In this document: piece by piece, positions 4,081 through 63,786 of the stretch
How positions within the stretch are numbered: the first letter of the stretch is position 1
Layout: each line of letters opens with the position of its first letter
DNA from: a virus
DNA length: 64,000 bases
Reading direction: 5' to 3' (one strand)
IMG/VR virus record: IMGVR_UViG_3300045988_076131
Span: 10,380 to 74,379 of that record
Notes under the pieces: generated by a model
Database searches by the model: none
Told to the model about the DNA's origin: nothing
What the model saw: the letters and a program-made list of their open reading frames with translations, nothing else
Program-made: the position numbers and the translations under genes

Positions 4081-4602
4081 ATGTGGCAGAAAGTATCAGA
4101 AAAGATGCCCGAAATGGGCGTAGAGGTTATTGGATATAACCGAGATTGGGTTGACGAGGATTTTAACCCAAACGGAACAAGAGTGTGTTTCTACGATGAT
4201 ACTGGTTGGTATTCCGCAAAGTGGGACAACGACCAAGACTCGTATAGTACCGTAGGCTGTGCACGGTGTGAATGTTCGGAAGACAACTGCGAATTTAGTA
4301 GTAGTTGTAAGTTAAAGGCAGATCCGACACACTGGATTCCGATGCCAAAAATGGAAGAGGTTGAAATTATCGAACCAGGAAGAGAAGCTGACAAGCTCAC
4401 CAAAATGGCAAAAGCGGTCTACGAAATTGTTGACAATTACAGCGAAAAGAACGAGCTACACTGCCTGGTTCTTATGTCAGACAAAATAGGCGGAGCTTCT
4501 TTTACGATTGGCAGCGAAAGTGCGATAGCCAAAGAGTTTAAGGAACTTACAAAATGCCATGACGCATTTAAAAACATTCTTAATAAATTAAAACAGCTAT
4601 GA
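4081..4602 (+). CDS. DUF551-like phage protein
   Basis: MWQKVSEKMPE... followed by PTHWIPMP resembles the DUF551 pattern (W...P, THWMPLP). Confidence 0.55.
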   Translation: MWQKVSEKMPEMGVEVIGYNRDWVDEDFNPNGTRVCFYDDTGWYSAKWDNDQDSYSTVGCARCECSEDNCEFSSSCKLKADPTHWIPMPKMEEVEIIEPGREADKLTKMAKAVYEIVDNYSEKNELHCLVLMSDKIGGASFTIGSESAIAKEFKELTKCHDAFKNILNKLKQL

Positions 4603-5006
4603 CAATCGAAGAAACAAAAGAACGCATCGCCGTGATGCAGGCGTATGTGGACGGAAAGCAGATACAAGGGATGTGTTCGGATGGTAAATGGGTTGACGTT
4701 CCAGAACCCAGTTGGAGTATTAATGGCAACTTCCGCGTCAAGCCTGAACCCAAGTTCCGCCCGTTTAAGAATGCAGACGAGTGCTGGCAGGAGATGTTGA
4801 AACATGAGCCGTTCGGATGGGTTGTAATAATCGAAAATAATCTTTCAATCAAATACAACATTCAGGCTCTTATACAGAACGGAGTAAAAAGTACGGCTGT
4901 TTTGACTGACGATGTGATGTCAGAAAAGTTCCCATTTGAGGGAGTACTTCAGAAATTCACGTTTGTAGACGGCACACCGTTTGGAATAAAAAAGGAGGAA
5001 GTATGA
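4599..5006 (+). CDS. hypothetical protein
   Basis: 135-codon ORF with an ATGA overlap with the upstream gene. Confidence 0.55.
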   Translation: MTIEETKERIAVMQAYVDGKQIQGMCSDGKWVDVPEPSWSINGNFRVKPEPKFRPFKNADECWQEMLKHEPFGWVVIIENNLSIKYNIQALIQNGVKSTAVLTDDVMSEKFPFEGVLQKFTFVDGTPFGIKKEEV

Positions 5007-5188
5007 TGAAAACAATAGGAGGAACCCTGCTTTTTACAGTGTGTGTATTGTTAGTGGTTGCGATACCCACTATTGTAGGTCTCCGTTTTGGTGCTTTATA
5101 TGGCTTTATCTTATTTCTGATTATAGCTGCAATCTATGGGCTGGTGTTAACCATATATGGAGATAAAATTGAAGATATGTTTTCATGA
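5003..5188 (+). CDS. small membrane protein (2 TM)
   Basis: 61 aa, almost entirely hydrophobic, with an ATGA overlap. Confidence 0.5.
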   Translation: MMKTIGGTLLFTVCVLLVVAIPTIVGLRFGALYGFILFLIIAAIYGLVLTIYGDKIEDMFS

Positions 5189-5373
5189 ACAGAAATAAAA
5201 AATTCACATTAGCAATGCTTTCGGTAGGGCTTGCTTCGGTAGTTTCGGCAGTCAATGCAATAATTAATGCTTATTTCGGTATACAATACTTTTTTGCGTT
5301 ACTGTCAGCGGAATATGTAATCTGCATACTATTGTTAATCAAATCCGATGATAAAACAGAAGATAAATTATGA
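5185..5373 (+). CDS. small membrane protein (2 TM)
   Basis: 62 aa, hydrophobic, with an ATGA overlap. Confidence 0.5.
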   Translation: MNRNKKFTLAMLSVGLASVVSAVNAIINAYFGIQYFFALLSAEYVICILLLIKSDDKTEDKL

Positions 5374-5726
5374 ACAGAGAAATCAAATTCAGAGGCAAAC
5401 GTCTCGACAATGGCGAATGGGTGTATGGCGACTTACTCCACCTTGTAGACGGCGTGTATATAAGCAACGACAACGGATGCAACATGGCGCAGGTAGACCC
5501 CGATACGGTCGGGCAGTACACAGGACTAAAAGACAAAAACGGCAAGGATGTATATGAGGGCGATGTTATAGAAACTTATTCGCATTCGTATATTGTAACG
5601 TGGTTCAAAAGGTCGAGCGCTTTTCTCCTAAAAGAAGATGAGACTGATAACCTTAACGCTTTTACTCCGTCATTGGTGTTACAATCTTCCGATGCTGTTG
5701 TAACAGGCAATATTCACGACAGGTAG
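5370..5726 (+). CDS. YopX family phage protein
   Basis: MNREIKFRGKRLDNGEWVYGDL ... VGQYTGLKDKNGKDVYEGDVIE is the classic YopX signature. Confidence 0.85.
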   Translation: MNREIKFRGKRLDNGEWVYGDLLHLVDGVYISNDNGCNMAQVDPDTVGQYTGLKDKNGKDVYEGDVIETYSHSYIVTWFKRSSAFLLKEDETDNLNAFTPSLVLQSSDAVVTGNIHDR

Positions 5727-5739
5727 AAAGGAGGCTAAT

Positions 5740-5922
5740 ATGCAGGACGTAAAGATAACATTTAGGGTTCGAGTGTCTGACGATGAGAGCCGCGTCATAA
5801 TTACAGAGCCGGCAATGACGCAGCCTATAAGTTTTGATGTCTTCATAGGTATCATCAGAAAACTTGCGGACTTTCAAGAAGAATGGAACGAGGAGCACAA
5901 ATTAGAAAACAAAGAGAAATGA
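5740..5922 (+). CDS. hypothetical protein
   Basis: 60-codon ORF. Confidence 0.4.
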   Translation: MQDVKITFRVRVSDDESRVIITEPAMTQPISFDVFIGIIRKLADFQEEWNEEHKLENKEK

Positions 5923-6095
5923 ATCGTGAAAAATTCTGTTCAACGCCAGCATACAAAAAGCTAAGAAACGAGCTTAATACGCAGCTGTATATTCTTCGTC
6001 ACACAAAAGACAAAGAAGCGAAGAGAGGCGTACAAGCCGAAATAGCACGCTTGAGGAATTTAATGGGAATCAAACCTAAAAACAAAGAACAATGA
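5919..6095 (+). CDS. hypothetical basic protein (58 aa)
   Basis: Internal ATG at 5919 overlapping the upstream stop (ATGA). Confidence 0.4.
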   Translation: MNREKFCSTPAYKKLRNELNTQLYILRHTKDKEAKRGVQAEIARLRNLMGIKPKNKEQ

Positions 6096-6217
6096 CACAA
6101 GAAGAGATTCGGCACATAAAGAAACTGAAAGACGCTGGGTTTGACTGCGGCAGCAGCAGGTCAATGCTCGAAACTATACAGCTCTTGAAACTCTCAAAAG
6201 GAGAAACACGGAAAATT
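6092..6217 (+). CDS. small hypothetical protein (41 aa)
   Basis: ATGA overlap at 6092-6095. Below the track cut-off. Confidence 0.3.
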
Positions 6218-6238
6218 TAATAAAAACAAGCGACAATA

Positions 6239-6376
6239 ATGAAACAGGCAGATTATATCAGACTGACGGCACAGATTGCCGTGCTGAAAGAAATTGCCGT
6301 TGATTACAGCTGCAAGACGATAGACAACATCATACAACAGCTTGAAGCAATTAAAAAGGAGGTAGAGAATGATTAG
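6239..6376 (+). CDS. small hypothetical protein (45 aa, helical)
   Basis: ATG at 6239, with an 8-nt overlap with the next gene. Confidence 0.3.
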   Translation: MKQADYIRLTAQIAVLKEIAVDYSCKTIDNIIQQLEAIKKEVEND

Positions 6377-6749
6377 AGTAAACGCATACCGCTGTTCGCA
6401 CTGCGGAAAGCTGTTTCTTACGGAAATACGTTGCATAAAACATGAGGAAAAGTATTGCAACAAATCTCCTTGCAATATCGCAGCTTGCTATTCGTGCAAG
6501 TGGTACAAAGAAACGGAGCAAACTACGACTATTACAAGGACAGGGGTCAATCCGCTGACAGGGTACGAATACGAATACGGAAAAGAGGTTCGCATAAATC
6601 TATGCTTGAAGCATCACAACGCCAAAATGTTCAACTCGTTTCATGCGTCAGAAGAACTTGTTGAGGATGCTGAGAACGGCGGCTTCCGTATCATGCCGAC
6701 GATGAAAGAAGGATGTTTGGACTATAAAAAGAAAGAAAATGAAGATTAG
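6369..6749 (+). CDS. zinc-finger-like protein
   Basis: Contains CSHCGKLF...CIKHEEKYC plus further Cys pairs. Confidence 0.55.
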   Translation: MIRVNAYRCSHCGKLFLTEIRCIKHEEKYCNKSPCNIAACYSCKWYKETEQTTTITRTGVNPLTGYEYEYGKEVRINLCLKHHNAKMFNSFHASEELVEDAENGGFRIMPTMKEGCLDYKKKENED

Positions 6750-9977: not shown

Positions 9978-10402
9978 AACAAGTCCTCCCAAGGTATAGG
10001 CATACCGTTGTGGCAGCAGTCGGCATAGAAGCGGTTGAAGATGAAGCCGTCTTTCTGATCTGTGTCATCAACCACATCTTTCACATAATGCGCCATTTGC
10101 TGCTCGTCCTTTATCGACTTGCCCCAAAAGTCAGCTCTGCACATATTGGCTACATACACGTGGTCGTAGCCGACGAGATTTTCAAGCTGCAAGCCGTTCG
10201 TTTGCAACATCTCCTCGACCTTCTCTTTCGGTAGCATCTCCAAACGTTCTTCCTTGCCAGTAGCAGGGTTAATCGTTCGCATTTGCTTGACAGCCCACTC
10301 GCACATCTTCTTGTTGAAGTGATAGCCGTTGTATCTTAAATAAGCTATCATTCCTTCGGGTTTCAAGTCGTACATATCCAAAGGCATCTTACATCTTCCC
10401 AT
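9974..10402 (-). CDS. hypothetical protein
   Basis: 142-codon ORF. Confidence 0.6.
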   Translation of the reverse strand: MGRCKMPLDMYDLKPEGMIAYLRYNGYHFNKKMCEWAVKQMRTINPATGKEERLEMLPKEKVEEMLQTNGLQLENLVGYDHVYVANMCRADFWGKSIKDEQQMAHYVKDVVDDTDQKDGFIFNRFYADCCHNGMPIPWEDLL

Positions 10403-40001: not shown

Positions 40002-40598
40002 ATGAGAAATAGAATTATTACAGCGATTATGGTAACATTTGCCTTTTTTGCGCTATCATGCACACAGAAACAACAGAAAGTAACCACCCATAAACCGACA
40101 CCATCCACAAAGCAGGTTTTTCTAAACAAAACAAAGGATGCGCTTAAAAATTTTGTAAAAGACAAAGCAAACAATCCCGATGCTATGAAGATTAGCGGGA
40201 TGAAAGTGGCGTTTCTTTGTGATAGCGCTTGTGCTTTAAACTTTCGTTTCGTTGCAGAAAACAAACTCGGAGGGCATGTTAACGGAAAGGCTCAATTTAT
40301 ACTATTAGAATATCAAGACGAATACTATTGGTCGTGGCAAGACGACAAAGACGATTCACCTCACTGTATTGGAGACTGGCTGGGGAATTTTGGCGCATTT
40401 TTTGCGGCAACTTTGCATTTGGAATTTAAAGACACTGACGCTTTTGTAAAATCTAAATGCCCCAAAGATAGTAGTGACTGTGCAAGCATCACCATGGAAG
40501 ATGAGTATGTACAAGCATATTGTATAACAAAGAAGTTTGGCGAAAAGGCAGATATGACACCTTCTACTTCGTGTGATCATACAATTCCAGTACAATAG
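40002..40598 (+). CDS. lipoprotein, paralog of 61544..62095
   Basis: Signal peptide with lipobox FFALSC. NPDAMKISGMKVAFLCDSACALNFRFVAENKLGGHV aligns with NPEDFKVSNLKVVWATDSLCVINFRAIGENGFGGHV. Confidence 0.7.
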   Translation: MRNRIITAIMVTFAFFALSCTQKQQKVTTHKPTPSTKQVFLNKTKDALKNFVKDKANNPDAMKISGMKVAFLCDSACALNFRFVAENKLGGHVNGKAQFILLEYQDEYYWSWQDDKDDSPHCIGDWLGNFGAFFAATLHLEFKDTDAFVKSKCPKDSSDCASITMEDEYVQAYCITKKFGEKADMTPSTSCDHTIPVQ

Positions 40599-40972
40599 CC
40601 ATACCATTAGCCGCCACGCCTTTGTGCATGGTGGCTAATATTGTTCTTGTCTTATCGTTGGGGGGGTAATATTCCCCCAAATCTTATTTATATCACTATC
40701 AGTTCTCATAAAACTCAATTATATACGTTACACTATTATTCCCTCCTCCCTTATAGAGGGTGGCGCACATGCAAACGGCTTTGCTTTGCCCCCCTAATCT
40801 GTTTGGATATATTTTCCACTTGGTGTGTTGCTGTCATAATTCGTAGATTGTTAAAACGTGCGGTAAACCATAGGAGTTGGTTCTGTGTGCTATCTCTGTC
40901 GTAAGACAGTTGTATTTACCCCCCCCCTCACTACTGATACAGGCTTTTTGTAGCCTTGGATAATCAGAATGT

Positions 40973-41128
40973 TCATATCTCTTTCAATTCTAAAACAAAT
41001 GGACGTAAATCAAAACCTCCCAAGCCGTGAGCGTAAAATGCAGTCAGCGTGCCTGTTTTTGCTCTGGGGGGGGTATGAATAACTATTGACTTATACAAAG
41101 TCGGATAAAAAACTATTCTATTTTCCAT
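40973..41128 (-). CDS. mini-protein, array unit F2 (51 aa, intact; in-frame C8 tract read as Pro-Pro)
   Basis: MENRIVFYPTLYKSIVIHTPPRAKTGTLTAFYAHGLGGFDLRPFVLELKEI, with an ATGA overlap with unit G. Confidence 0.35.
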   Translation of the reverse strand: MENRIVFYPTLYKSIVIHTPPRAKTGTLTAFYAHGLGGFDLRPFVLELKEI

Positions 41129-41268
41129 AAAGCTCTAATATTGCCGGTCTGATATTATAGTTCGGATCTATGCCTTTATAGTCGTTTGCCTTTATCGGCT
41201 GGCATTTACCCCCCCCCATATATAGACCTTGGCTTAAAATGGTCAAGTATATACTTCCTCATACACCT

Positions 41269-41442
41269 CTAACAAATAATTGATTTGCCCCCCCGCATAA
41301 CAGAACTCGTTTTGAAATCGGGGCGGCACGAAAAAGCCATAAGATTGTGCCTTGTGCCGTATTTTCGTTCACCGCAAGCGTATTGCCCCCACACCTTTCT
41401 TCCAAGCTCAGTGCGGTACTGATTAAGTATTTTACTTCTCAT
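41269..41442 (-). CDS. mini-protein, array unit E (57 aa as assembled; contains G5 and G7 tracts)
   Basis: MRSKILNQYRTELGRKVWGQYACGERKYG...SSVMRGGKSIIC. One extra G gives ...RGGQINYLLEVYEEVYT. Confidence 0.3.
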   Translation of the reverse strand: MRSKILNQYRTELGRKVWGQYACGERKYGTRHNLMAFSCRPDFKTSSVMRGGKSIIC

Positions 41443-41562
41443 ACAGTTCTAAGATTTTCATCACACTTCTATCATAACTACCGGTTAAAAGGCAAATACC
41501 CCCCGAATATGGAGTAAAACCGATGTTGTTGATGTGCGGTGTTCCCCCATTCGGAATTTCCG

Positions 41563-41727
41563 TTAAGTTGACTGATTTTCTTCATACATTTCAAATAATA
41601 AATTATCTTTCGCCGCAGAGGTGAGAGAGGATGATTTTTGTCCTCTAAGTTCAATTCTCTGTTCGTGTGGTGAATTGTACCAATCATCAATAGAACGTCC
41701 TCTAACGGCAATCACATTACTTCTCAT
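41563..41727 (-). CDS. mini-protein, array unit C (54 aa, intact)
   Basis: MRSNVIAVRGRSIDDWYNSPHEQRIELRGQKSSSLTSAAKDNLLFEMYEENQST. Overlaps the start of unit D. Confidence 0.35.
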   Translation of the reverse strand: MRSNVIAVRGRSIDDWYNSPHEQRIELRGQKSSSLTSAAKDNLLFEMYEENQST

Positions 41728-41848
41728 ACGTTTCTAAAACACAATCGCATTGCGAGTTATTGCCTGCCCCATGTGCGCCAACACATAAAGCCGAGCCTTT
41801 GTGCGACTCAACAATATCTCCCTTGCGACTAATCTTTATCTTTCTCAT
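41717..41848 (-). CDS. mini-protein, array unit B (43 aa, intact)
   Basis: MRKIKISRKGDIVESHKGSALCVGAHGAGNNSQCDCVLETYEK. Its stop lies inside the start region of unit C. Confidence 0.35.
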   Translation of the reverse strand: MRKIKISRKGDIVESHKGSALCVGAHGAGNNSQCDCVLETYEK

Positions 41849-42066
41849 ACACTACAAACACATACCCCCCCCGATGTGCGGTCTGCAAGCATTGGTGTTT
41901 GACGGACTTATACCTTGCCTTGTTACAGCAACTCCGTGTAATCTATTTTTCATAAATCTCAACAATTCCTGTATGCTGCCTATGTCCTGGAACGTACCAC
42001 CAACCTATGTATCTTGCGTTTAACGCAGTGGATTTGGTGGTGGGGGGGGTGATACCACTCCCCATA

Positions 42067-43299
42067 TTAAACGCTCTTGTCGTTCTCATTATACAAGCCT
42101 TCAAGTCTTTGTTTTTCTAAACCAAAGCTAAACTCCGCCAATTCACGCTTTTCTTCACCTGTAAGCGCATTAAACTCGTCAGAGGTACAAATATACTCAA
42201 ACAACTCTTTAACGCTTACCTGTGGCTCTAAAAGATAGTCTTTGAGTTTTCTTTTATCTGTCCTTGCCATTAACTGCGCTACCGTTTCGTCTTTCAGGTA
42301 GTATTTCTCACCTGCCTCTTCTTGGAGAATATCCTTAATAACGATACCTCGGTCTTCCGGCTGCGGAATATCCACTTCAAGCGGAGGCCATGCAAACGGG
42401 TCGCTTTCATCATAAAACAAGCCTTCTCCTGCGACTGGCTTTGTCTTGATATTAGTCCAATAGATACGTCGTCTGTTCTGTGCCGATACAAGCGCAGAGT
42501 TAATATGAATACCACGCACACCGATAGCGTGAGAAAGACATCTTTCCCACTTTTCAAGCATCTTGACGTTTTCAAGAAAGAAATAAATATCGGGATTGTA
42601 CTTACGCAGCTCCGTAAGTATTCGCATATATTCCCAAAAGAGATAGGACTGACCTTCAAACTGAAAGCCTTGTGACTTTAATTCGAGATAGCGTTCGAGG
42701 GTGTAAATTTCCTCGCCACTCTTTGTACTCATGCCTTTCATCTTTCCGCTAAAAGAAAACGATTGGCACGGAGAACCTCCGATTAAGATGTCGGGCACCC
42801 CGTATTTTTCAACTATCTCGTCTATATTCAAATCCGTAACGCTACCCAACTGGATAGTATTCGGAAAGTTGTGCATCGTGTTCGCAATAGCGTGCTTATC
42901 AATCTCCGATGCAAGATAAGTCGTTATGTTAGCACCGATGCCGCGTAACGAAACTTGTCCCCCTGAAATTCCGTCAAACAAAGACAAGACCTTGAGGTTG
43001 TTCAACTTGATTTTAGGAATGAAACTGAAAATATGCTTGATAGTTTCAATGTTCCAGCCGTTGCCAAGCCCTTTGTACTGCTGCGTTTCGCTTGTAACAA
43101 ACTCGTAATCGTGCGGCATAGTCTGCAACTCGGCACACTCTTGCGGTGTCAGTCGTCTGATAGCTGCCACATATTTTACTCCATTTGCCTCAAACTCTAC
43201 GCCCTGCTTATTATCGGGCATGCGCTCCTGAAATTCCTTCAGTTGCTTTTCTTTTACCTTGCGGTAAACATCCCTTGCGATTACTTCTTTATTCTCCAT
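42067..43299 (-). CDS. DNA (cytosine-5) methyltransferase with circularly permuted motif order
   Basis: Motifs IX/X (RRLTPQECAELQTMPHDYEF ... GLGNGW) lie at the N-terminus. They precede I (LFDGISGG), IV (GGSPCQSFS), VI (LENV) and VIII (SAQNRRRIYW). Confidence 0.85.
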   Translation of the reverse strand: MENKEVIARDVYRKVKEKQLKEFQERMPDNKQGVEFEANGVKYVAAIRRLTPQECAELQTMPHDYEFVTSETQQYKGLGNGWNIETIKHIFSFIPKIKLNNLKVLSLFDGISGGQVSLRGIGANITTYLASEIDKHAIANTMHNFPNTIQLGSVTDLNIDEIVEKYGVPDILIGGSPCQSFSFSGKMKGMSTKSGEEIYTLERYLELKSQGFQFEGQSYLFWEYMRILTELRKYNPDIYFFLENVKMLEKWERCLSHAIGVRGIHINSALVSAQNRRRIYWTNIKTKPVAGEGLFYDESDPFAWPPLEVDIPQPEDRGIVIKDILQEEAGEKYYLKDETVAQLMARTDKRKLKDYLLEPQVSVKELFEYICTSDEFNALTGEEKRELAEFSFGLEKQRLEGLYNENDKSV

Positions 43300-43473
43300 G
43301 TATCTCCAAAATTAAATTATCTTGTGTAGAAGTACTTATTGTTCCGCATCTTTTGTCGGGTCGGCATGAGTACGAGCGCATGTTGGAGCGGTTGCACCAC
43401 TCGCTCCTCGTACCACTATCGTACATTTTTCGGTATGCTCAGCCCAACTCGTTGCGGTATTTGTTCAGTATGA

Positions 43474-43989
43474 CTATTTGCGCCATTGGCTCGCCTTTAT
43501 GTCCTTCCTTTTTACTTTAAGCGACTTAGCACACTTCGTAACAGCCCGTTCGTATTCCCCGTAAACGAACAACTCTATCGAACCACCATTACTACCGAAT
43601 ATCAGACTGTCACCATCTCCACAAACATAAACCCTTCCGAAAAAGTTGGGTGGAACAATGACACTCGCACGACCTCCGGCAATAACCGTAAGGGTACTCC
43701 TAAGCTCTATTTTGCCATGAGGTTCTACATAAAGCTCACTTGTGTACCCGTCTTTCTTGCGCTGATACTTGCCGTTGATGAAGTCCGCAAACTCATTCAG
43801 TAGAAACTCCTGCGAACACCCCCAACCGAAAGTTATTGCATCTGCAAGAAACTCAACGCCGTTGGAGTCTAACACCAAGTCCATAAGCTCTTTCTTTGAG
43901 GCGCAGCTATCCCACTTTTTCTTGTATTCTCCGCACAATCCCAACATAAGGGCATTGCGTTTCATGTTTAACAGCTCATTATTGCTCAT
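43474..43989 (-). CDS. hypothetical protein
   Basis: Internal ATG at 43989 (MSNNELLNMK...). Track ORF 43474..44025. Confidence 0.55.
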   Translation of the reverse strand: MSNNELLNMKRNALMLGLCGEYKKKWDSCASKKELMDLVLDSNGVEFLADAITFGWGCSQEFLLNEFADFINGKYQRKKDGYTSELYVEPHGKIELRSTLTVIAGGRASVIVPPNFFGRVYVCGDGDSLIFGSNGGSIELFVYGEYERAVTKCAKSLKVKRKDIKASQWRK

Positions 43990-51070: not shown

Positions 51071-52099
51071 TTATAAGTTATGAAACAGGTCGCTTTGCCC
51101 AGACTGCTGCATCATGGAGCGATATTTGTCAAGCTGATTTGTCGGCACGAACAGCCTCTCAGTAACAGAGCTTGTCTTTGTGGCGCATAGGCTCTGCTTG
51201 TGTTTGATGTTCCGCACCTCCGTAAATCTGTCTGCCGGCATGTAATACTCACTTATCAACACCAACTCCTCCTGATTGCAGCACCAGTCGTAAAATTCAC
51301 TGTGATTGAACGGCTGTGTAACCGAAGAGTTCTTGCCATAAGCATTTGTAGAGAAATACGGAATATCCGCATATATAACAGAGTTAGGCTGTATCTTAAC
51401 CTCTCTGTAGTCCACCTCGGAGTACCGAAAGCTCTGTAGACGTTCGAGGCTTTCGAGGCTCTGTAGACGTTCGAGACGTTCGAGGCTCTGTAGACGTTCG
51501 AGACGTTCGAGGCTTTCGAGGCGATCAGTGTCGTAGCTTGTAGACAAGCTTGCGAACGAACCCGCCGAATTAGTCTTTAAACACTCCCTTATGGCAGAGC
51601 GGAACTTAATCCTCCTGTTATGCCAACCCATAACTTCTCTGAGTGCCTCCTTGCACACCTCGCTTACGCCTGGATATAGGTCGCTTAAAAGACCAAAATC
51701 TCCGTATATTATAGCATAATGACACGCTTTCTTGTACGGCTCAATGGCTTTCGAGTACAGATAATCACGCTGATTATTGCCGAAGCTCCAGCAGCAGGAG
51801 ATGTATGGGTCGGTGTCTTTTAGCTTGGAGAAGTCCTCGCGGCTCACCCATCTCGTTTCCATGGCGTATTTGCCGTCCATGCCGTCACGGAAAAGCCTCA
51901 ACGCCCGTCCGTCTATGTCGTTGGCGTAGCAGTGTCTATACCTGCCTTCGAGTAGCATTTTATGGGTCACGGCGCAGCCACCGGCAAACAAATCGTAGAA
52001 ATTGTCAACGTCTTTATACGGAATCGCCTCCACCAATCTGTCTACTACCTGCGACTTGCTGCCCTTGTACGGAACTCCCCACCACTTGCGCTTAACCAT
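51071..52099 (-). CDS. Dam-like (D12 class) N6-adenine DNA methyltransferase with an internal 9-aa tandem repeat
   Basis: KWWGVPYKGSKSQVVDRLVEAIP...FYDLFAGGCAV and a DPPY-like IYADIPY. Start at 52099 gives an 8-nt overlap with the upstream gene. Confidence 0.75.
   Translation of the reverse strand: MVKRKWWGVPYKGSKSQVVDRLVEAIPYKDVDNFYDLFAGGCAVTHKMLLEGRYRHCYANDIDGRALRLFRDGMDGKYAMETRWVSREDFSKLKDTDPYISCCWSFGNNQRDYLYSKAIEPYKKACHYAIIYGDFGLLSDLYPGVSEVCKEALREVMGWHNRRIKFRSAIRECLKTNSAGSFASLSTSYDTDRLESLERLERLQSLERLERLQSLESLERLQSFRYSEVDYREVKIQPNSVIYADIPYFSTNAYGKNSSVTQPFNHSEFYDWCCNQEELVLISEYYMPADRFTEVRNIKHKQSLCATKTSSVTERLFVPTNQLDKYRSMMQQSGQSDLFHNL
51431..51520. repeat. 27-bp tandem repeat, about 3.3 copies, inside the Dam-like gene
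   Basis: gctctgtagacgttcgag plus (a/g)c(g/t)ttcgag units; encodes (LERLERLQS)n. Confidence 0.9.
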
Positions 52100-52658
52100 T
52101 CGACACCTTGCCTCCGTTTTTAAGCCAGTCCTCAATGGTTGTACTCGCACCGTCAAATGTTCTACCAAAAATATTGACAAGTTTCACCGAACACTGGAGA
52201 TACGGCGTGTTTTTTATCACATCGGAAGACGGCTCGCAGGCATCCTGCACAAGAAACAACGCCTTGCGCTGTCTGTAATCGTCTTTCCATAGCACCAGGG
52301 AGCCTTCCAGGTAGGAGTAAAGCTCATCCCATGCAGCCTCCATTTTCTTCGTCTGCTCCTCAATCGGCAAGCTCGTAGTGGTATCAATGTTATACCCGAA
52401 CACATAAACAGAGAGCGTACATGTTGTACTTTCGTGTGTGGCGTTCGGGTCTACAAAAACCCTGAGAGCGCCTGTTTCAGCATAACTCTCTGTGTACACG
52501 CCTTTCTGCTTACCCTTGGAGTTGAGACCAGTCATTGACTTGTAGCGAATAACACCGCCAAAATCATCCTCAAGACTCTTTGGCGTGCCGTCACTCGCCC
52601 ACGCACCCTGCGCAGACTTCGTGTATCGCTGTATGTAAAATTTCTTATTATCGGCCAT
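52092..52658 (-). CDS. hypothetical protein
   Basis: Internal ATG at 52658 (MADNKKFYIQRY...). Track ORF 52092..52739. Confidence 0.55.
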   Translation of the reverse strand: MADNKKFYIQRYTKSAQGAWASDGTPKSLEDDFGGVIRYKSMTGLNSKGKQKGVYTESYAETGALRVFVDPNATHESTTCTLSVYVFGYNIDTTTSLPIEEQTKKMEAAWDELYSYLEGSLVLWKDDYRQRKALFLVQDACEPSSDVIKNTPYLQCSVKLVNIFGRTFDGASTTIEDWLKNGGKVSNG

Positions 52659-53041: not shown

Positions 53042-53090
53042 GGGAAAGGGTGGGTGCGGTGGGTGCGGTGGGTGCCTGGGGGGGTGGGGG
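53042..53090 (+). repeat. G-rich block: three tandem ggtgggtgc units plus G7 and G5 runs (G-quadruplex-capable)
   Basis: Seven runs of G3 or longer within 49 nt. The 9-bp unit sits at 53049, 53058 and 53067. Confidence 0.8.
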
Positions 53091-53213
53091 TTTAACCCCT
53101 GCGGATGGCGAAGGCTCAAAAAGCAAAGAGTATAAAGCACGTAACACGCTGATACATAACTACTTACAGGCTCTATAAATACTATTTTTTACATACAAGA
53201 CGGACGTATTACA

Positions 53214-53320
53214 CGAAAAAGGCGAAAAAGGCGAAAAAGGTATTATATTTATATATACTATTAGATATATAGATATAATATATATAAATATATAATATAT
53301 AGCTAATAATATATATATAC
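53214..53320. repeat. three tandem cgaaaaagg units followed by an 80-bp almost pure A/T (TA-rich) block
   Basis: Units lie at 53214-53240. 53241-53320 contains only a handful of G/C. Confidence 0.75.
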
Positions 53321-53348
53321 GCACGCGCGAGGAGCTGCACCTACACCA

Positions 53349-53735
53349 CTACGCCACGCCGAACTTTTTCGCCTCGTCGTGCCTGCCTGCCTTCCACTCC
53401 TGCTCCTGCCTTCTCTCTTCCCCCCTATATCCCCCCCCCACGGTGCGCAGCCTCGCCGCCGTTGTGCGCTCTGGATGCAGCGCCGTGCACCACTCGCCGC
53501 CTCGCTTTCCGTCGATCATTAGGCACGCCCGCCGCCCTTCCGTGCTGCCATCTGTAAAATGTTCTTTCAGGCGCGCGAGGCGTTCGGCTATTTTGCGCCG
53601 TTCTGCCGCTTTCTTTCGTGCCGGCTTATAGCTTACACGCCGCCGTATCTGCACGCCGTTACACGCAAAGAAAACAGGCCTATTTGCGAAGTTGTGCGCC
53701 GTGCCTATCTTCCTCCGTGCCAACGTTTTATACAC
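53349..53735 (-). CDS. doubtful ORF in a GC-rich islet (basic protein; GTG start; contains G9 and G6 tracts)
   Basis: 128 codons. Composition is visibly more GC-rich than the flanks, and no promoter was recognised. Confidence 0.25.
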   Translation of the reverse strand: MYKTLARRKIGTAHNFANRPVFFACNGVQIRRRVSYKPARKKAAERRKIAERLARLKEHFTDGSTEGRRACLMIDGKRGGEWCTALHPERTTAARLRTVGGGYRGEERRQEQEWKAGRHDEAKKFGVA

Positions 53736-54278: not shown

Positions 54279-55595
54279 ATGGAAAAATTAAGCACATCAC
54301 AGATGCGCCAGAACGGTCTGACAGCCTTCGAGGCTGAACTCGTCAACTACATTTTAACAAATGAAATCAGCGAGGGCACAACGTTTCGCGGCGTGCCAGG
54401 GCATCCCCGTTACGGCGCAAGTAAGGAGGAGGAGCTCGTTGTGGTCTTCAACTCCGAGACTCTGAGCGTTGAGCGTGTAGGCAAGAAAACAATAACAATA
54501 AATTTCGCAGACTACACAGCAGGACGAAAGAGAGCAGCAACAAACACCACCACCACAACAACAAGCAATAACACAAATAATAATAACAATAATAATAATA
54601 ATAATACGGAAGAGCAGAACACAGCAGCAACAACAAACACTAACAACAACAACGTAAATAACGCGGCGTTAAGTTTTATGCAGCAGATGTTCGCGCAGCA
54701 GCAGGAGGAGGGCTACCAAAGAGCGAAAGCAGAAAGCGCTGCCGAGATCGATAGCCTTAAAAAGCAAATAGAGGAGGCGAAGAAGGTAGGCACAGGCAGT
54801 GTTATTAACGTTGTCGTGGATGGCAAGAAGACAACGACAAAAACCGAACAGGTTTTAGATCCGAATTTTGGAAACATCTTGAAACTTGTCGCAGCACACG
54901 AAAATGTGTATTTGTACGGCCCGGCAGGCAGCGGCAAAAACACAATAGCCGAGCAGATAGCCGACGCCCTCGGAGTTGATTTTTACTATCAAAATACGTT
55001 GGTTACAAAGTTTGACGTATCAGGCTACAAGAACGCACAGGGCGAGTACGAAGAAACACCATTTTATAAAGCGTGGAAAAACGGCGGTTTATTCTTTGCC
55101 GACGAACTCGACAACAGCACCGCCGAGGCTATTATAGCCATAAACGCTGCACTCGCTAACGGTTACTACACATTCCCCAACAGCGGCGAGAAGGTAGCAA
55201 AAAACCCGAATTTCTACTGCATCGCAGCCGGAAATACCAACGGACAGGGCGCAACGGAAGAGTATTGTGGGCGCTATCAGATAGACGAGAGCAGCCGCGA
55301 CCGCTTCGCCTTCATCGAAATAGGTTATAACATGAAAGTAGAAGAGAGTATTTGCGGCGGACATCTCGATATATTGGAGTTCGTGCGCGACCTTCGCAGC
55401 GTTACAAAGAGTTTACAAATTAAATTAATTTGTGGATACCGCGCAATTTCGCGCCTCGCAAAGTTCTACGGCATGAATACGAAATTTGTGCTCGACTCCT
55501 TCATCTTTAAGGGCCTCGCCCTGGATGATATACGAGAGATCGCCGCAGCGTTGAGCAGCGAAAACAAGTACATGAAAGAGACTAAGAAATATTAA
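54279..55595 (+). CDS. AAA_5-type ATPase (CobS/MoxR/dynein-related) with an N-terminal Asn/Thr low-complexity tract
   Basis: Walker A LYGPAGSGKNT, Walker B LFFADELD. Residues ~88-128 read TNTTTTTTSNNTNNNNNNNNNNTEEQNTAATTNTNNNNVNN. Confidence 0.8.
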   Translation: MEKLSTSQMRQNGLTAFEAELVNYILTNEISEGTTFRGVPGHPRYGASKEEELVVVFNSETLSVERVGKKTITINFADYTAGRKRAATNTTTTTTSNNTNNNNNNNNNNTEEQNTAATTNTNNNNVNNAALSFMQQMFAQQQEEGYQRAKAESAAEIDSLKKQIEEAKKVGTGSVINVVVDGKKTTTKTEQVLDPNFGNILKLVAAHENVYLYGPAGSGKNTIAEQIADALGVDFYYQNTLVTKFDVSGYKNAQGEYEETPFYKAWKNGGLFFADELDNSTAEAIIAINAALANGYYTFPNSGEKVAKNPNFYCIAAGNTNGQGATEEYCGRYQIDESSRDRFAFIEIGYNMKVEESICGGHLDILEFVRDLRSVTKSLQIKLICGYRAISRLAKFYGMNTKFVLDSFIFKGLALDDIREIAAALSSENKYMKETKKY

Positions 55596-56856: not shown

Positions 56857-57780
56857 ATGGCAAAGTTAACAATTTTAGACGCCGCCGTATATTGCGGCAC
56901 GTACAAAAAGTACAACGAGGGCAGCCTCGACGGTGGATGGCTGCACCTTGGAAGATACCAGAACGCTGCGGCGTTCTTGGAAGCGTGCAAGAAGCTGCAC
57001 GCCGACGAAAGCGATCCGGAGTTTATGTATCAGGATTTCGAATACCTGCCGGACGAGTTCTACTCCGAGTCGTGCATATATCCGGAAGTCTTCGAGGTTA
57101 TACAAGCAATAAAGCAGATGAACCCCGACAAGCAAGCCGCTTTTGCTGACTTCTGCGAGCGTGGCGCGTGCATCCCTGATATGTTCGACGTTGAGGAGTT
57201 TTTGCTCACGTACAAGCCAAATAGAAAGCCACACAAGACAGCGCAGAGCGAGGACATGAAGGAGTTCTCCGAACTCTTCAAAACGTGGTATTACTTGGAT
57301 CATACCGCCGAAGCTCTGAAGGTAGACGAAAAACACTTCATTACATTCGACAGACAAAACATCGAGAAGTCGTTTTGCTTCGGCTGGAGCTGTCAAGGGG
57401 GGATGACGTGCGAAGAAGCAACCGACATGTGCCACAACTTCGGCGAGGCTGAATTTAAGGCAGAAAACCTCGAGCGCTTCGACCGGGAGTACAAACACGC
57501 CTTGGAAGCGGTTGAAGAAAATCAGATAACACTCGGGCAACATTACACGCGCGGCACGTCTGAGGAGTTCGGAGCTGAAATCATGTTTATAAAAAAGCGT
57601 GGCACCAACGACGACGACGGCGACATAACTCTAAGCGTTGAAGATAGCACCAAACTACGCGAAGCGTACAAACAGAAGGTGCAGGATCTTCGCAACGAGT
57701 TCGAAAAACGCTTGGACGCGTACCTTAAAAAATACGGACTGAGTAAAATTCGCCGTTGGACTTATTGCGCCGACGATTAA
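56857..57780 (+). CDS. ardA: ArdA-like antirestriction protein (N-terminal ArdA domain plus an unrelated ~180-aa extension)
   Basis: AAVYCGTYKKYNEGSLDGGWLHL ... DPEFMYQDFEYLP parallels the ArdA VYIANLGKYNEGELVGAWFTF ... EYAIHDYELPF. Confidence 0.7.
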   Translation: MAKLTILDAAVYCGTYKKYNEGSLDGGWLHLGRYQNAAAFLEACKKLHADESDPEFMYQDFEYLPDEFYSESCIYPEVFEVIQAIKQMNPDKQAAFADFCERGACIPDMFDVEEFLLTYKPNRKPHKTAQSEDMKEFSELFKTWYYLDHTAEALKVDEKHFITFDRQNIEKSFCFGWSCQGGMTCEEATDMCHNFGEAEFKAENLERFDREYKHALEAVEENQITLGQHYTRGTSEEFGAEIMFIKKRGTNDDDGDITLSVEDSTKLREAYKQKVQDLRNEFEKRLDAYLKKYGLSKIRRWTYCADD

Positions 57781-62592: not shown

Positions 62593-63786
62593 CTACGCCT
62601 TGTCGCCGTTCACGTAGTCGATAATCTTGCGCGCTGCATCATCAATTCGTTTCGTGCCGTAGGCGATGTAGTGGTCGGTCACGTCTGCCCAGGAGTGCCC
62701 GAGGCAAAGGGCAATAGTCTCACGAGGTATCTCAAGTTCTGCACCAATAGAAGCGAATGTGTAACGAGCGGTGTACACCGTCATGCTTTCCGCTATCGGA
62801 TGCCAGACGACCTTGCGCAGCCTGCCCACCTTGTCCGGCACAATCTCCTTGCGCCCGATTTTCTTGAGAGCGTCGTTCCAGTGATGGCAGAAGTCGCGGT
62901 AGTTTGTATAAACGTCAAGAGGGCACAGAAGCCAACCCTTGCCCTTGTAGCGTCTGATTATTTCCATCGCCTCGGGAGGTATTGGAATGTCGTACAAGTG
63001 TCCTGTCTTCGCTCTCTTATACCTGATACGTCCGTTGTGTACGTTGGACGGCTTGAGCGTAAGCAGGTCTATTGGGTTGATGCCGCAAAGGTAGAACGTC
63101 AGCAAGAACAAGTCGCGGTATATGCGTTGCCATTCCTCGACCTCGCAATCCCTTATCTTCCTCAGCTGCTCAACGCTGATGTTGTTGATAGCAACCTTCT
63201 CCTGCTTTATCTTATACCGCCTGAATGGGTAGTTTGTGGTCAGCTCGTTGTCGAGCGCCCAGTTGAACACCGTGCGTATGTTGCGCAGCATGATAGCCTT
63301 GTAGTTCACGCTCGCTTCGCCCATATATCGCTCGAAGCCGTCAAGCCATGCTTTGTCTACACTGCCGAATACCGCTCTGCCGTCATACTCGCGCACCTTC
63401 CGTGCCGACATTCGGTAGAGGTCTGCCGTTCCTTTGCGACTCTTTGTGTCGGCGAACCTTTCGATGTAGTCCGCAAGACACGTCGCTTTCTCCTCATGCG
63501 CCTCGCCCGATACCAAGGTTGTCAGCTCTCTCTTCATCTTTGCGAGGTCGGTGCCGGCATTGTTCAGCAGATACGCCTCCACATCGTCGATGATGCTCGT
63601 CAATCTTCTGAGCTTCGCCCTGTAGTTCGTTTCTTTAGGCGACATAGAAAGACCCGAGAACGCAGTCAACACGTAGATACCTGTTGACACAACGAACTCC
63701 TTACCGTCATTGCGGAACAAAATCTTCACTGCAATTCGTCCGTCCTTACCCCTCTTGCTCTCTTTAGCTGCGATATAATACTTCAT
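62593..63786 (-). CDS. int: tyrosine recombinase / phage integrase
   Basis: 397 aa. C-terminal catalytic region reads ...TARYTFASIG...LGHSWADVTDHYIAY, with an N-terminal SAM-like arm-binding region. Confidence 0.9.
   Translation of the reverse strand: MKYYIAAKESKRGKDGRIAVKILFRNDGKEFVVSTGIYVLTAFSGLSMSPKETNYRAKLRRLTSIIDDVEAYLLNNAGTDLAKMKRELTTLVSGEAHEEKATCLADYIERFADTKSRKGTADLYRMSARKVREYDGRAVFGSVDKAWLDGFERYMGEASVNYKAIMLRNIRTVFNWALDNELTTNYPFRRYKIKQEKVAINNISVEQLRKIRDCEVEEWQRIYRDLFLLTFYLCGINPIDLLTLKPSNVHNGRIRYKRAKTGHLYDIPIPPEAMEIIRRYKGKGWLLCPLDVYTNYRDFCHHWNDALKKIGRKEIVPDKVGRLRKVVWHPIAESMTVYTARYTFASIGAELEIPRETIALCLGHSWADVTDHYIAYGTKRIDDAARKIIDYVNGDKA

Follow-up and report, generated by a model that had tools for sequence, protein, structure and literature searches.

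The 64,000-nucleotide stretch of viral DNA analysed here (IMG/VR record IMGVR_UViG_3300045988_076131, positions 10,380 to 74,379; hereafter the window) encodes on its minus strand a C5 cytosine DNA methyltransferase accompanied by a dense series of very small reading frames, most of them bearing a G or C homopolymer. We propose, with a probability of roughly 60%, that this locus is a split, multispecific C5 methyltransferase system in which separately encoded target-recognition domain (TRD) subunits are switched as contingency loci. One gene would provide a permuted catalytic core devoid of a TRD, and twelve small cistrons, one upstream and eleven downstream, would provide TRD-sized peptides of 41 to 66 amino acids. 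The homopolymer tracts are hypermutable and set the reading frame across strains, and, judging from the frames themselves, tract length decides whether the recognition half of a unit is translated. The components of the locus are the following:

43289..43486, minus strand: U-1, upstream unit, paralogue of U5 (BLASTP against U5, E=2.7e-13)
42067..43299, minus strand: circularly permuted C5 cytosine DNA methyltransferase core, 410 amino acids (PF00145)
40564..42089, minus strand: array of 11 head-to-tail mini-cistrons, U0 to U10, 41-66 amino acids, delimited by three-frame reading and by unit homologues in related loci
41943..42089, minus strand: U0, 48 amino acids, in frame, MRTTRAFNMGSGITPPTTKSTALNARYIGWWYVPGHRQHTGIVEIYEK, C8 tract on the coding strand
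41829..41953, minus strand: U1, broken at G8, derived by a 61-nucleotide deletion from a longer unit
41717..41848, minus strand: U2, 43 amino acids, no tract of at least 5 nucleotides in the window, in frame in every tract-less copy seen
41563..41727, minus strand: U3, 54 amino acids, without tract, in frame in all loci but L002, where the start codon is ACG
41432..41585, minus strand: U4, broken at G6, with a minor G5 run at 41544-41548
41243..41442, minus strand: U5, broken at G7, with a minor G5 run at 41386-41390
41118..41262, minus strand: U6, broken at G9
40973..41128, minus strand: U7, 51 amino acids, in frame, MENRIVFYPTLYKSIVIHTPPRAKTGTLTAFYAHGLGGFDLRPFVLELKEI, C8 tract on the coding strand
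40834..40976, minus strand: U8, broken at G9
40699..40837, minus strand: U9, broken at G6
40564..40709, minus strand: U10, the last unit, broken at C7 on the coding strand, with a G5 run at 40674-40678

The start codons of U0 to U10 lie at 42089, 41953, 41848, 41727, 41585, 41442, 41262, 41128, 40976, 40837 and 40709, and the last stop codon of the array ends at 40564. All units are in direct orientation and every one ends with three hydrophobic residues followed by E-h-Y-E (h, hydrophobic), the next ATG being placed inside the Tyr-Glu codons (T-ATG-A), an overlap that suggests translational coupling. A joint alignment of the units revealed a shared layout, namely Met, a short strand, a Gly/Pro loop holding the tract, K-x3-(L/I)-x-(A/T)-x3-(K/H)-G, a variable stretch and the terminal hhhE-h-Y-E. 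If a unit is called ON when its C-terminal peptide is in frame, U0, U2, U3 and U7 are ON in the window, and U1, U4, U5, U6, U8, U9 and U10 are OFF. Public gene calls place no gene on the 1.5-kb array in two relatives, L166 (3834-5300) and L168 (11234-12700), over the segments equivalent to about 42066-40600 of the window, and the mini-cistrons are thus invisible in the existing annotation. An exact-protein look-up of U2 returned no record.

The homopolymers of the array, in plus-strand coordinates, are distributed as follows:

40660-40666: G7, in U10
40674-40678: C5, in U10 (G5 on the coding strand)
40789-40794: C6, in U9 (G6 on the coding strand)
40919-40927: C9, in U8 (G9 on the coding strand)
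41066-41073: G8, in U7 (C8 on the coding strand)
41209-41217: C9, in U6 (G9 on the coding strand)
41288-41294: C7, in U5 (G7 on the coding strand)
41386-41390: C5, minor G5 run of U5
41499-41504: C6, in U4 (G6 on the coding strand)
41544-41548: C5, minor G5 run of U4
41865-41872: C8, in U1 (G8 on the coding strand)
42042-42049: G8, in U0 (C8 on the coding strand)

A homopolymer scan of the whole window, whose overall G+C content is 45%, found 27 G/C runs of at least 5 nucleotides, and twelve of these fall inside the 1.4 kb from 40660 to 42049 (binomial P=1.4e-13). Runs of at least 7 nucleotides are all in the array, except those of a non-coding patch at 53078-53439. The coordinates and lengths of the twelve runs given in a preliminary description of this DNA were reproduced exactly. 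Three-frame reading also agreed with its statements on the frames. As assembled, U1, U4, U5, U6, U8 and U9 (its units A, D, E, F, G and G2, in that order) and the last unit U10 break at their tracts, and the frame corrections proposed there give back the C-terminus hhhE-h-Y-E. Two of its details had to be amended. The G8 run at 42042-42049, which had been placed between the methyltransferase stop codon and unit A, is actually inside the in-frame U0 (42089-41943), and the flank G(n)-[T/C]AAA, reported as conserved, holds for four of the six G tracts and fails for the remaining ones. The tracts of U7 (41066-41073) and U0 (42042-42049) are in frame in the window and variable in relatives. As a separate observation, the G5 run and the C7 tract of U10 form a 10-bp inverted repeat around AATATTA (TTGGGGG-AATATTA-CCCCCCCAA, window 40658-40680); a comparable GGGG...CCCCCCCC arrangement occurs in U0 (42042-42066), and both units encode G.ITPP.

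Scans with the core protein collected 79 loci from viral contigs, 80 from metagenomes and 6 from genomes, and exact-protein look-ups identified the near-identical strains L166-L169; the comparison covers about 45 related Prevotella-type phage loci. Among phages whose methyltransferase is 90-99% identical to that of the window, array indels are found at the tracts, apart from one 61-nucleotide insertion in U1 and differences at unit ends. Each tract occurs in three to four lengths across independent assemblies:

U0: C7, C8, C9 or interrupted; C7 and C9 are out of frame
U1: G6, G7, G8, G9; in frame with G6 (L015) or 9 nucleotides (L001), the long form of the unit being present in L002, L008 and L004
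U4: G6, G7, G8, G9; in frame with G8 (L100)
U5: G5, G7, G8, G9; in frame with G8 (L002, L100) and G5 (L015), giving a product of 66 amino acids
U6: G7, G8, G9
U7: C7, C8, C9, C10; out of frame with C7, C9 and C10
U9: G5, G6, G7, G9, and GAG6, GAG7, GAG8 in one clade; in frame with G5 (L081), GAG6 (L085) and G8 (L104), and in the tract-less L004 orthologue
U10: C6, C7, C8; in frame with C8 or an interrupted tract (L001, L002, L080)

Interrupted tracts that fix the frame (e.g. CCTCCCCC, ACATCTCCC) occur as well, in every case in the ON register. In a set of 43 loci the density of runs of at least 6 nucleotides is 1.72 per kb in arrays versus 0.06 per kb in flanks, an approximately 29-fold over-representation (P=1.9e-121) of simple-sequence repeats inside reading frames, as expected of contingency loci. 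Tract length also changes rapidly, shared tracts differing in 13% of cases at less than 0.2% methyltransferase divergence and in 74% at 1-3%, with a plateau near 80%. That the tracts set the frame is also seen in the counts, tract-bearing units being ON in 20 of 62 cases, indistinguishable from one third, and tract-less units in 30 of 37 (Fisher p=3e-6). Both ON and OFF states occur among close, otherwise near-identical relatives, another property expected of such loci. The clearest case is L168 (scaffold_309, ENA analysis ERZ28575677): over 21,233 nucleotides the only differences from the window are four substitutions, which lie in the tape-measure gene, and one base of the U6 tract. U6 is G9 and OFF in the window, and G8 and ON in L168, where it reads through to a 47-amino-acid product. 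The comparison across strains supports slipped-strand changes of length as an independent switch of each mini-ORF (open reading frame), as put forward in the preliminary description. The frame corrections suggested there have natural counterparts, in-frame lengths being found in relatives, except for U8, of which each of the four loci carrying it has an out-of-frame version.

The same data bear on the possibility that the tracts are homopolymer errors of sequencing or assembly, which had been listed as an alternative. Homopolymers are weak points of some platforms, and the contigs are metagenomic assemblies. Nevertheless, the independent assembly L169 (Logan assembly of SRR24653432) equals the window over 11.9 kb with zero differences, all tracts included; tract lengths are therefore reproducible, which argues against random miscalls. 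Moreover, more than 240 A/T runs of at least 5 nucleotides, some of up to 9, coexist in the window with long intact ORFs such as the 1919-amino-acid tape measure, long G/C runs are confined to arrays, and the length range of 5-10 nucleotides exceeds what single-base miscalls would produce. Many contigs also have SPAdes-style NODE names, suggesting short-read assembly. We consider this explanation highly improbable.

Further support for the proposed system comes from the selection acting on the units. The ratio of nonsynonymous to synonymous differences per site (pN/pS) was obtained by Nei-Gojobori counts for tract-bearing units and their distinct homologues, compared pairwise against the window and so not phylogenetically independent, although the frames differ widely. 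Before the tract it is 0.22 in the ATG frame versus 1.4-1.8 in the other frames, and after the tract 0.17 in the C-terminal frame versus 1.1-2.3 in the others. U9 is OFF in 11 of 14 loci, yet its values are 0.31 before the tract and 0.14 after it. Purifying selection on both halves speaks against dead pseudogenes, which the preliminary description had named as an alternative. An overlapping ATG is present at 64 of 71 distinct unit ends (29 arrays), and the Tyr codon of the junction is TAT in 67 cases and TAC in 4, versus 143:168 in the long genes of the phage (p=1.5e-15); three of the four TAC junctions belong to the final unit of an array, with no cistron after it. These patterns of substitution and codon use indicate that the junction start codons are selected, and that both halves of the predicted units are coding and under selection.

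Stand-alone homologues point in the same direction. U7 has 22 homologous clusters of 50-83 amino acids, with identity down to 59%, no recorded Pfam domain and 'hypothetical protein' as the sole source name, and in two very large protein libraries every credible homologue of it is a stand-alone protein of 29-88 amino acids. A profile search of 1.84 billion representatives recovered no fused form of U7, only short stand-alone proteins and four long repeat-rich matches; the two of these that were inspected (P0145, P0149) are unrelated repeat proteins. At the level of gene structure, the specificity module thus appears to be encoded as a separate polypeptide. Between 39800 and 43700 we found no Rfam RNA family and, with Tandem Repeats Finder, no DNA-level tandem repeat. 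Sigma-70 promoter-like sites in this interval number 8 against 8.6 expected, in a scan ill-suited to Bacteroidota, and terminator-like sites 6 against 3.0 expected, three of them merely overlapping G/C tracts.

Selection on units that are mostly out of frame raises the question of whether the switch resides in the DNA at all. RNA polymerase or the ribosome could slip on the G/C runs, so that every unit would be expressed to some extent and DNA length variation would be largely neutral. The purifying selection on both halves of mostly out-of-frame units, U9 above all, fits slippage during expression, as it would also be expected if OFF genotypes yielded some full-length product, and so does an ON fraction equal to a random one third. 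Against it, interrupted tracts always sit in the ON register, which indicates that the frame at the DNA level matters, and tract-less orthologues are in frame as well. Known cases of programmed transcriptional slippage mostly use long A/T runs. Slippage during expression is in our view an unlikely explanation of the array.

The architecture of the methyltransferase itself is another argument for separately encoded TRD subunits. The core ORF matches PF00145 with E=1.2e-38, its sequence matches in the PDB are DNMT3 and M.HhaI, and its AF2 model, with a predicted local distance difference test score (pLDDT) of 78, has DNMT3A/B and DRM2 as best Foldseek matches. Motifs IX (RRLTPQE) and X (GNGW) occupy residues 48-82, motif IX being near the N-terminus at residues 48-54, and are followed by motifs I (FDGISGG), IV (GGSPCQ), VI (ENV) and VIII (QNRRR). 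This permuted order, IX-X before I-VIII, is conserved in 40 homologues, and the family comprises at least 120 protein clusters of about 410 amino acids. The chain has about 47 residues ahead of motif IX and opens, in the model, with a helix and a hairpin. After motif VIII the core holds just the conserved start of the variable region and helices, including a C-terminal helical extension whose last residues are LEGLYNEN. The TRD that C5 methyltransferases carry between motifs VIII and IX on the same chain is absent: no segment of the K..TL.A...KG type was found in the core, whereas it is present in fused relatives and in the mini-cistrons.

The unit upstream of the core, U-1, is a separate ORF out of frame with the core and without a homopolymer tract, and its end, ILEIHGE, overlaps the core start codon. 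Its codon 16 is an in-frame TGA in the window (43441-43439) and CGA in relatives; the unit is intact (65 amino acids) in L002, L008 and L015 and frameshifted in L001. The core of the window is intact, the G run of its motif I being G5 followed by A (42959-42963, plus strand). In L008 (about 6337), L012 (about 6327), L160 (about 3327) and protein cluster P0067 the corresponding run (FDGISGGQ) is G7 or G8, which frameshifts the catalytic core, and P0067 (28 members) begins just past this frameshift. In those lineages the run of motif I could be a master ON/OFF switch of the whole system.

The link between the mini-cistrons and TRDs is clearest for U10. This unit matches the segment NIRSIDDKAHTLLATSHKGAMANGMTLV of the fused methyltransferase of L026, directly before motif IX, with 57% identity over 28 residues (BLASTP E=1e-8), and a U10-type TRD occurs in 61 conventional loci (tblastn) and in a Prevotella prophage enzyme. 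The profile of the whole unit family aligns with this TRD of the fused multi-TRD enzymes as well (hhalign E=5.5e-4). For U10 the assignment as a TRD is therefore strong, and family resemblance extends it more weakly to the remaining units. It is firm for U10 alone because U7 and U5 singly give nothing significant. Similarity between units is weak pairwise, the twelve being mutually divergent TRD-like sequences, as expected if TRDs of different specificity diverge. A PDB sequence search with U9 alone returned chance matches only (E=1.4), and when a de-permuted construct (core, U9 and N-terminus) was compared with the PDB the catalytic motifs aligned and the unit did not. We rejected a resemblance between U5 and a fused enzyme noticed by eye (RTEYGKQIRKEY versus NQYRTELGRKVW), as BLASTP did not support it.

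Conventional relatives (fused multi-TRD enzymes L026 and L161) have three to five TRD modules in one chain, and the wider family thus seems built for multiple specificities. In two other loci, L108 and L062, the enzyme is split and non-permuted, one ORF encoding motifs I-VIII and the other the TRDs and motifs IX-X, and L062 has additional TRD mini-units between the two enzyme ORFs. TRD units of L108 and L062 carry C8, C9 and G8 tracts, with a mixture of in-frame and out-of-frame units, so tract-controlled TRD units recur outside the clade of the window. A U8-like unit is also found in the non-permuted arrays L062 and L158.

Several results weigh against our proposal or limit it. On the side of the TRDs, the alignment of the unit-family profile with the TRD of the fused multi-TRD enzymes reached a probability of only 30%, the U7 family gave no significant hhalign match to these enzymes (probability 0.1%), the BLASTP comparison of U5 with a fused enzyme gave E=19, and an AF2 prediction of a de-permuted fusion of core and U7 from a single sequence had a pLDDT of 38 and was uninformative. 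On the side of the switch, unconstrained drift would give the same ON fraction of one third as unbiased switching, and the counts of loci are not fully independent because many contigs come from related samples or collections (L003, L014 and L083 are near-duplicates). Some units look degenerate, namely U1 with its deletion, U-1 with its nonsense codon and U8, never seen ON, and the core itself is frameshifted in some relatives. The window lacks in U1 (41890-41905) 61 nucleotides of the longer form (GIRPFLNDGHKGSLTEYGTISFKS...; compare L002 7398-7449 and L008 7388-7439), so what lies between the deletion and the tract is read in a non-ancestral frame, and the unit may be non-functional at any tract length.

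The U1 deletion, the U-1 nonsense codon and the ACG start codon of U3 in L002 are unrelated to the tracts and, like the frameshifted cores of some relatives, would also suit a once-fused multi-TRD methyltransferase broken by frameshifts and now decaying, its homopolymers being functionless mutational hot spots; fused multi-TRD relatives do exist, and two thirds of the tract-bearing units are OFF. Decay is nonetheless difficult to reconcile with the low pN/pS on either side of the tract (0.17-0.22 in the proposed frames, compared with about 1-2 in the rest), with the strong selection of the junction ATG, or with the conservation of the 51-amino-acid U7 as a stand-alone peptide. Natural variants restore the frame in six of the seven broken units, and the enrichment in tracts recurs in separate lineages. 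In addition, a tract-free clade with 73-76% identical cores (L004, L005, L013 and others) possesses an array of this kind in which long runs are nearly absent and most units are intact. We regard decay as quite unlikely.

Taken together, our results suggest the following way for switchable, separately encoded TRD subunits to operate. In the clade of the window the Gly/Pro loop of nine units is encoded by a G/C homopolymer of 6-9 nucleotides (6-10 in relatives), and slippage during replication would alter the tract by one or two bases. Depending on the resulting length, the recognition half would or would not share the frame of the start codon, which would make each module an ON/OFF contingency locus independent of the others. 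The peptides would dock in trans on the core and complete its small domain, in the manner of complementing C5 methyltransferase fragments, and each docked peptide would confer a different methylation specificity. Translation would be coupled from unit to unit by the overlapping stop and start codons, so that units further along may be dampened when an OFF unit stops early. Stochastic switching would lead to a phage population with mixed self-methylation patterns, a form of bet-hedging against host restriction systems, both those blocked by modification (Type II) and those dependent on methylation; it might also limit the competition of too many peptides for one core. In its most explicit form, which we advance tentatively and with somewhat more doubt than confidence, this would be a 'plug-in' methyltransferase whose TRD-less core accepts about a dozen peptides of some 45 amino acids, each with its own target and its own homopolymer toggle.

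The set and order of units vary between close relatives, which suggests a second, slower layer of variation by gain or loss of whole units at the conserved junctions. The same variation could be explained by a silent cassette library, in analogy to the cassettes of antigenic variation: units would be donors that enter, by recombination at the conserved junction, a single site of expression by the core, at the position of U-1 or U0, and the state of the tracts would be of secondary importance. One unit lies directly upstream of motif IX, the natural position of a TRD. Silent cassettes, however, would need neither a selected start codon of their own nor an N-terminal half under purifying selection in the ATG frame. 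The uniformly direct orientation of the units is a further point against them, and chimeric units were not noticed in unit-by-unit alignments of relatives. A cassette library is, in our opinion, very unlikely.

The individual ingredients of the proposed system are known. Bacillus phages SPR, phi3T, rho11s and H2 reportedly encode multispecific C5 methyltransferases, and M.phiBssHII is said to be another such enzyme of a Bacillus phage. Like the system proposed here, these are phage C5 methyltransferases with serial short TRDs (about 40-50 amino acids) of one specificity each, and presumably serve self-protection against several host restriction systems. Unlike in the Bacillus phage enzymes, the TRDs of the window would be off the enzyme chain, in separate cistrons with their own start codons, the core is permuted and TRD-less, and most TRD cistrons have a frame-setting homopolymer. 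Split or permuted C5 methyltransferases, natural or engineered, include M.AquI alpha/beta, M.BssHII, M.Alw26I, M2.Eco31I, M.Esp3I and M2.BsaI (PMC5944983). Permuted enzymes of the M.BssHII type have, like the core of the window, motifs IX-X ahead of I-VIII, and the split of M.AquI alpha/beta is shared by the related lineage of L108 and L062. In known natural permutants, in contrast, the TRD is N-terminal on the same chain (Type H), whereas the core of the window has no TRD and U-1 is a separate ORF; and known split enzymes consist of two halves, whereas here a core would have a choice of many TRD-only peptides.

Repeat-driven, phase-variable methyltransferases comprise Type III mod phasevarions, repeat-bearing Type I hsdS and the Campylobacter Type IIG cj0031 (for example PMC6902483, PMC4889913). 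In these, slippage of a repeat inside the gene leads to ON/OFF methylation specificity and population heterogeneity, as proposed here. These systems are cellular and adenine-specific, with one switch per enzyme or specificity subunit, whereas the window would present a phage C5 system with about nine switches and some of its relatives hold a tenth, in motif I of the core. Phage contingency loci have been reported as well, including the polyG of receptor-binding genes in Campylobacter Fletchervirus, loci of T2/T4 and a polyG in a methylase gene of Bordetella phage BPP-1 (PMC12633550). They likewise consist of hypermutable homopolymers (G/C tracts of 7-11 nucleotides) that cause reversible frameshifts and phenotypic subpopulations; unlike the units of the window, they are single genes of ordinary size, mostly for receptor binding, and none is described as an array of mini-cistrons switching enzyme specificity. 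Finally, Type I HsdS, including the invertible hsdS shufflons of Bacteroides and pneumococci (PMC7641763, PMC7672463), is a separate specificity polypeptide that docks on a catalytic methyltransferase, with the expressed specificity varying in the population, as in our proposal. It serves an adenine methyltransferase, is a large subunit with two TRDs and varies by site-specific inversion, and it has no homology to the units described here. Full-text searches of open-access papers brought up no account of TRD-only mini-cistrons, nor of an array whose specificity modules can be switched independently.

The window belongs to a tailed phage and carries portal, terminase, major head and tape-measure genes; others bear on the phage's way of life:

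56857-57780, plus strand: match to an anti-restriction PHROG (E=1.7e-11)
51071-52180, minus strand: Dam-like N6-adenine methyltransferase (PHROG 56; PF02086 in public annotation)
62593-63786, minus strand: integrase

The phage is probably temperate. Given the anti-restriction-like protein and the Dam-like methyltransferase, it seems to invest in several counter-restriction functions. The host is predicted to be a Prevotella-type member of the Bacteroidales, on the basis of one binned contig and of more distant prophage relatives: L160 is a contig of a Prevotella metagenome-assembled genome with the same kind of array, and L161/L162 are a prophage of Prevotella sp. oral taxon 376 with the conventional fused enzyme. 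A megablast search of 40500-43300 against GenBank phages gave zero matches. We also considered whether the window wraps around a circular genome and rejected this, the two ends sharing no similarity.

Three observations lie outside the methyltransferase array. First, a second cluster of G/C runs (G7, G5, C6, C9), unrelated to the array, occupies a non-coding region of odd composition at 53050-53440, with GGTGGGTGC and GAAAAAGGC three times each, an AT-only block at 53240-53320 and then a C-rich block; we found no convincing ORF in it, and it could be a replication origin, or a regulatory or packaging region. Second, the 438-amino-acid protein encoded at 54279-55595 (plus strand) has Asn/Thr low-complexity runs (NNNNNNNNNN, TTTTTT) before an AAA-ATPase-like domain (PHROG 249, labelled 'porphyrin biosynthesis', CobS-like). 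Third, downstream of the fused methyltransferase of L161/L162, perfect tandem peptide repeats are encoded at 4275-5327 and 5647-6387 (IGSSGD[SY]AK about 17 times, and GSGYG-type). The two copies of this Prevotella sp. oral taxon 376 prophage, on the same scaffold, differ at 581 positions over 7.3 kb in a position-by-position comparison.

If confirmed, a free-standing TRD subunit would be a new enzyme architecture, and the array would account for a stretch of gut-phage genomes left empty by public gene callers. Bet-hedging by contingency loci, which has been recognised in phages only recently, would be extended to counter-defence, and the array would be an unusually dense case, with about nine independent switches in 1.5 kb. 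Should the plug-in reading be true, one genotype would give rise to hundreds of heritable combinations of methylation specificity (2^9 from the tracts alone), and no earlier C5 methyltransferase would have had a minimal specificity subunit that stands free. With TRDs as free-standing peptides, a constant core and naturally exchangeable modules could serve to study how sequences are recognised, with programmable cytosine methylation as a possible outcome. The core family being widespread in human-gut metagenomes, such a system could shape the host range of Prevotella phages and the assignment of hosts from methylation.

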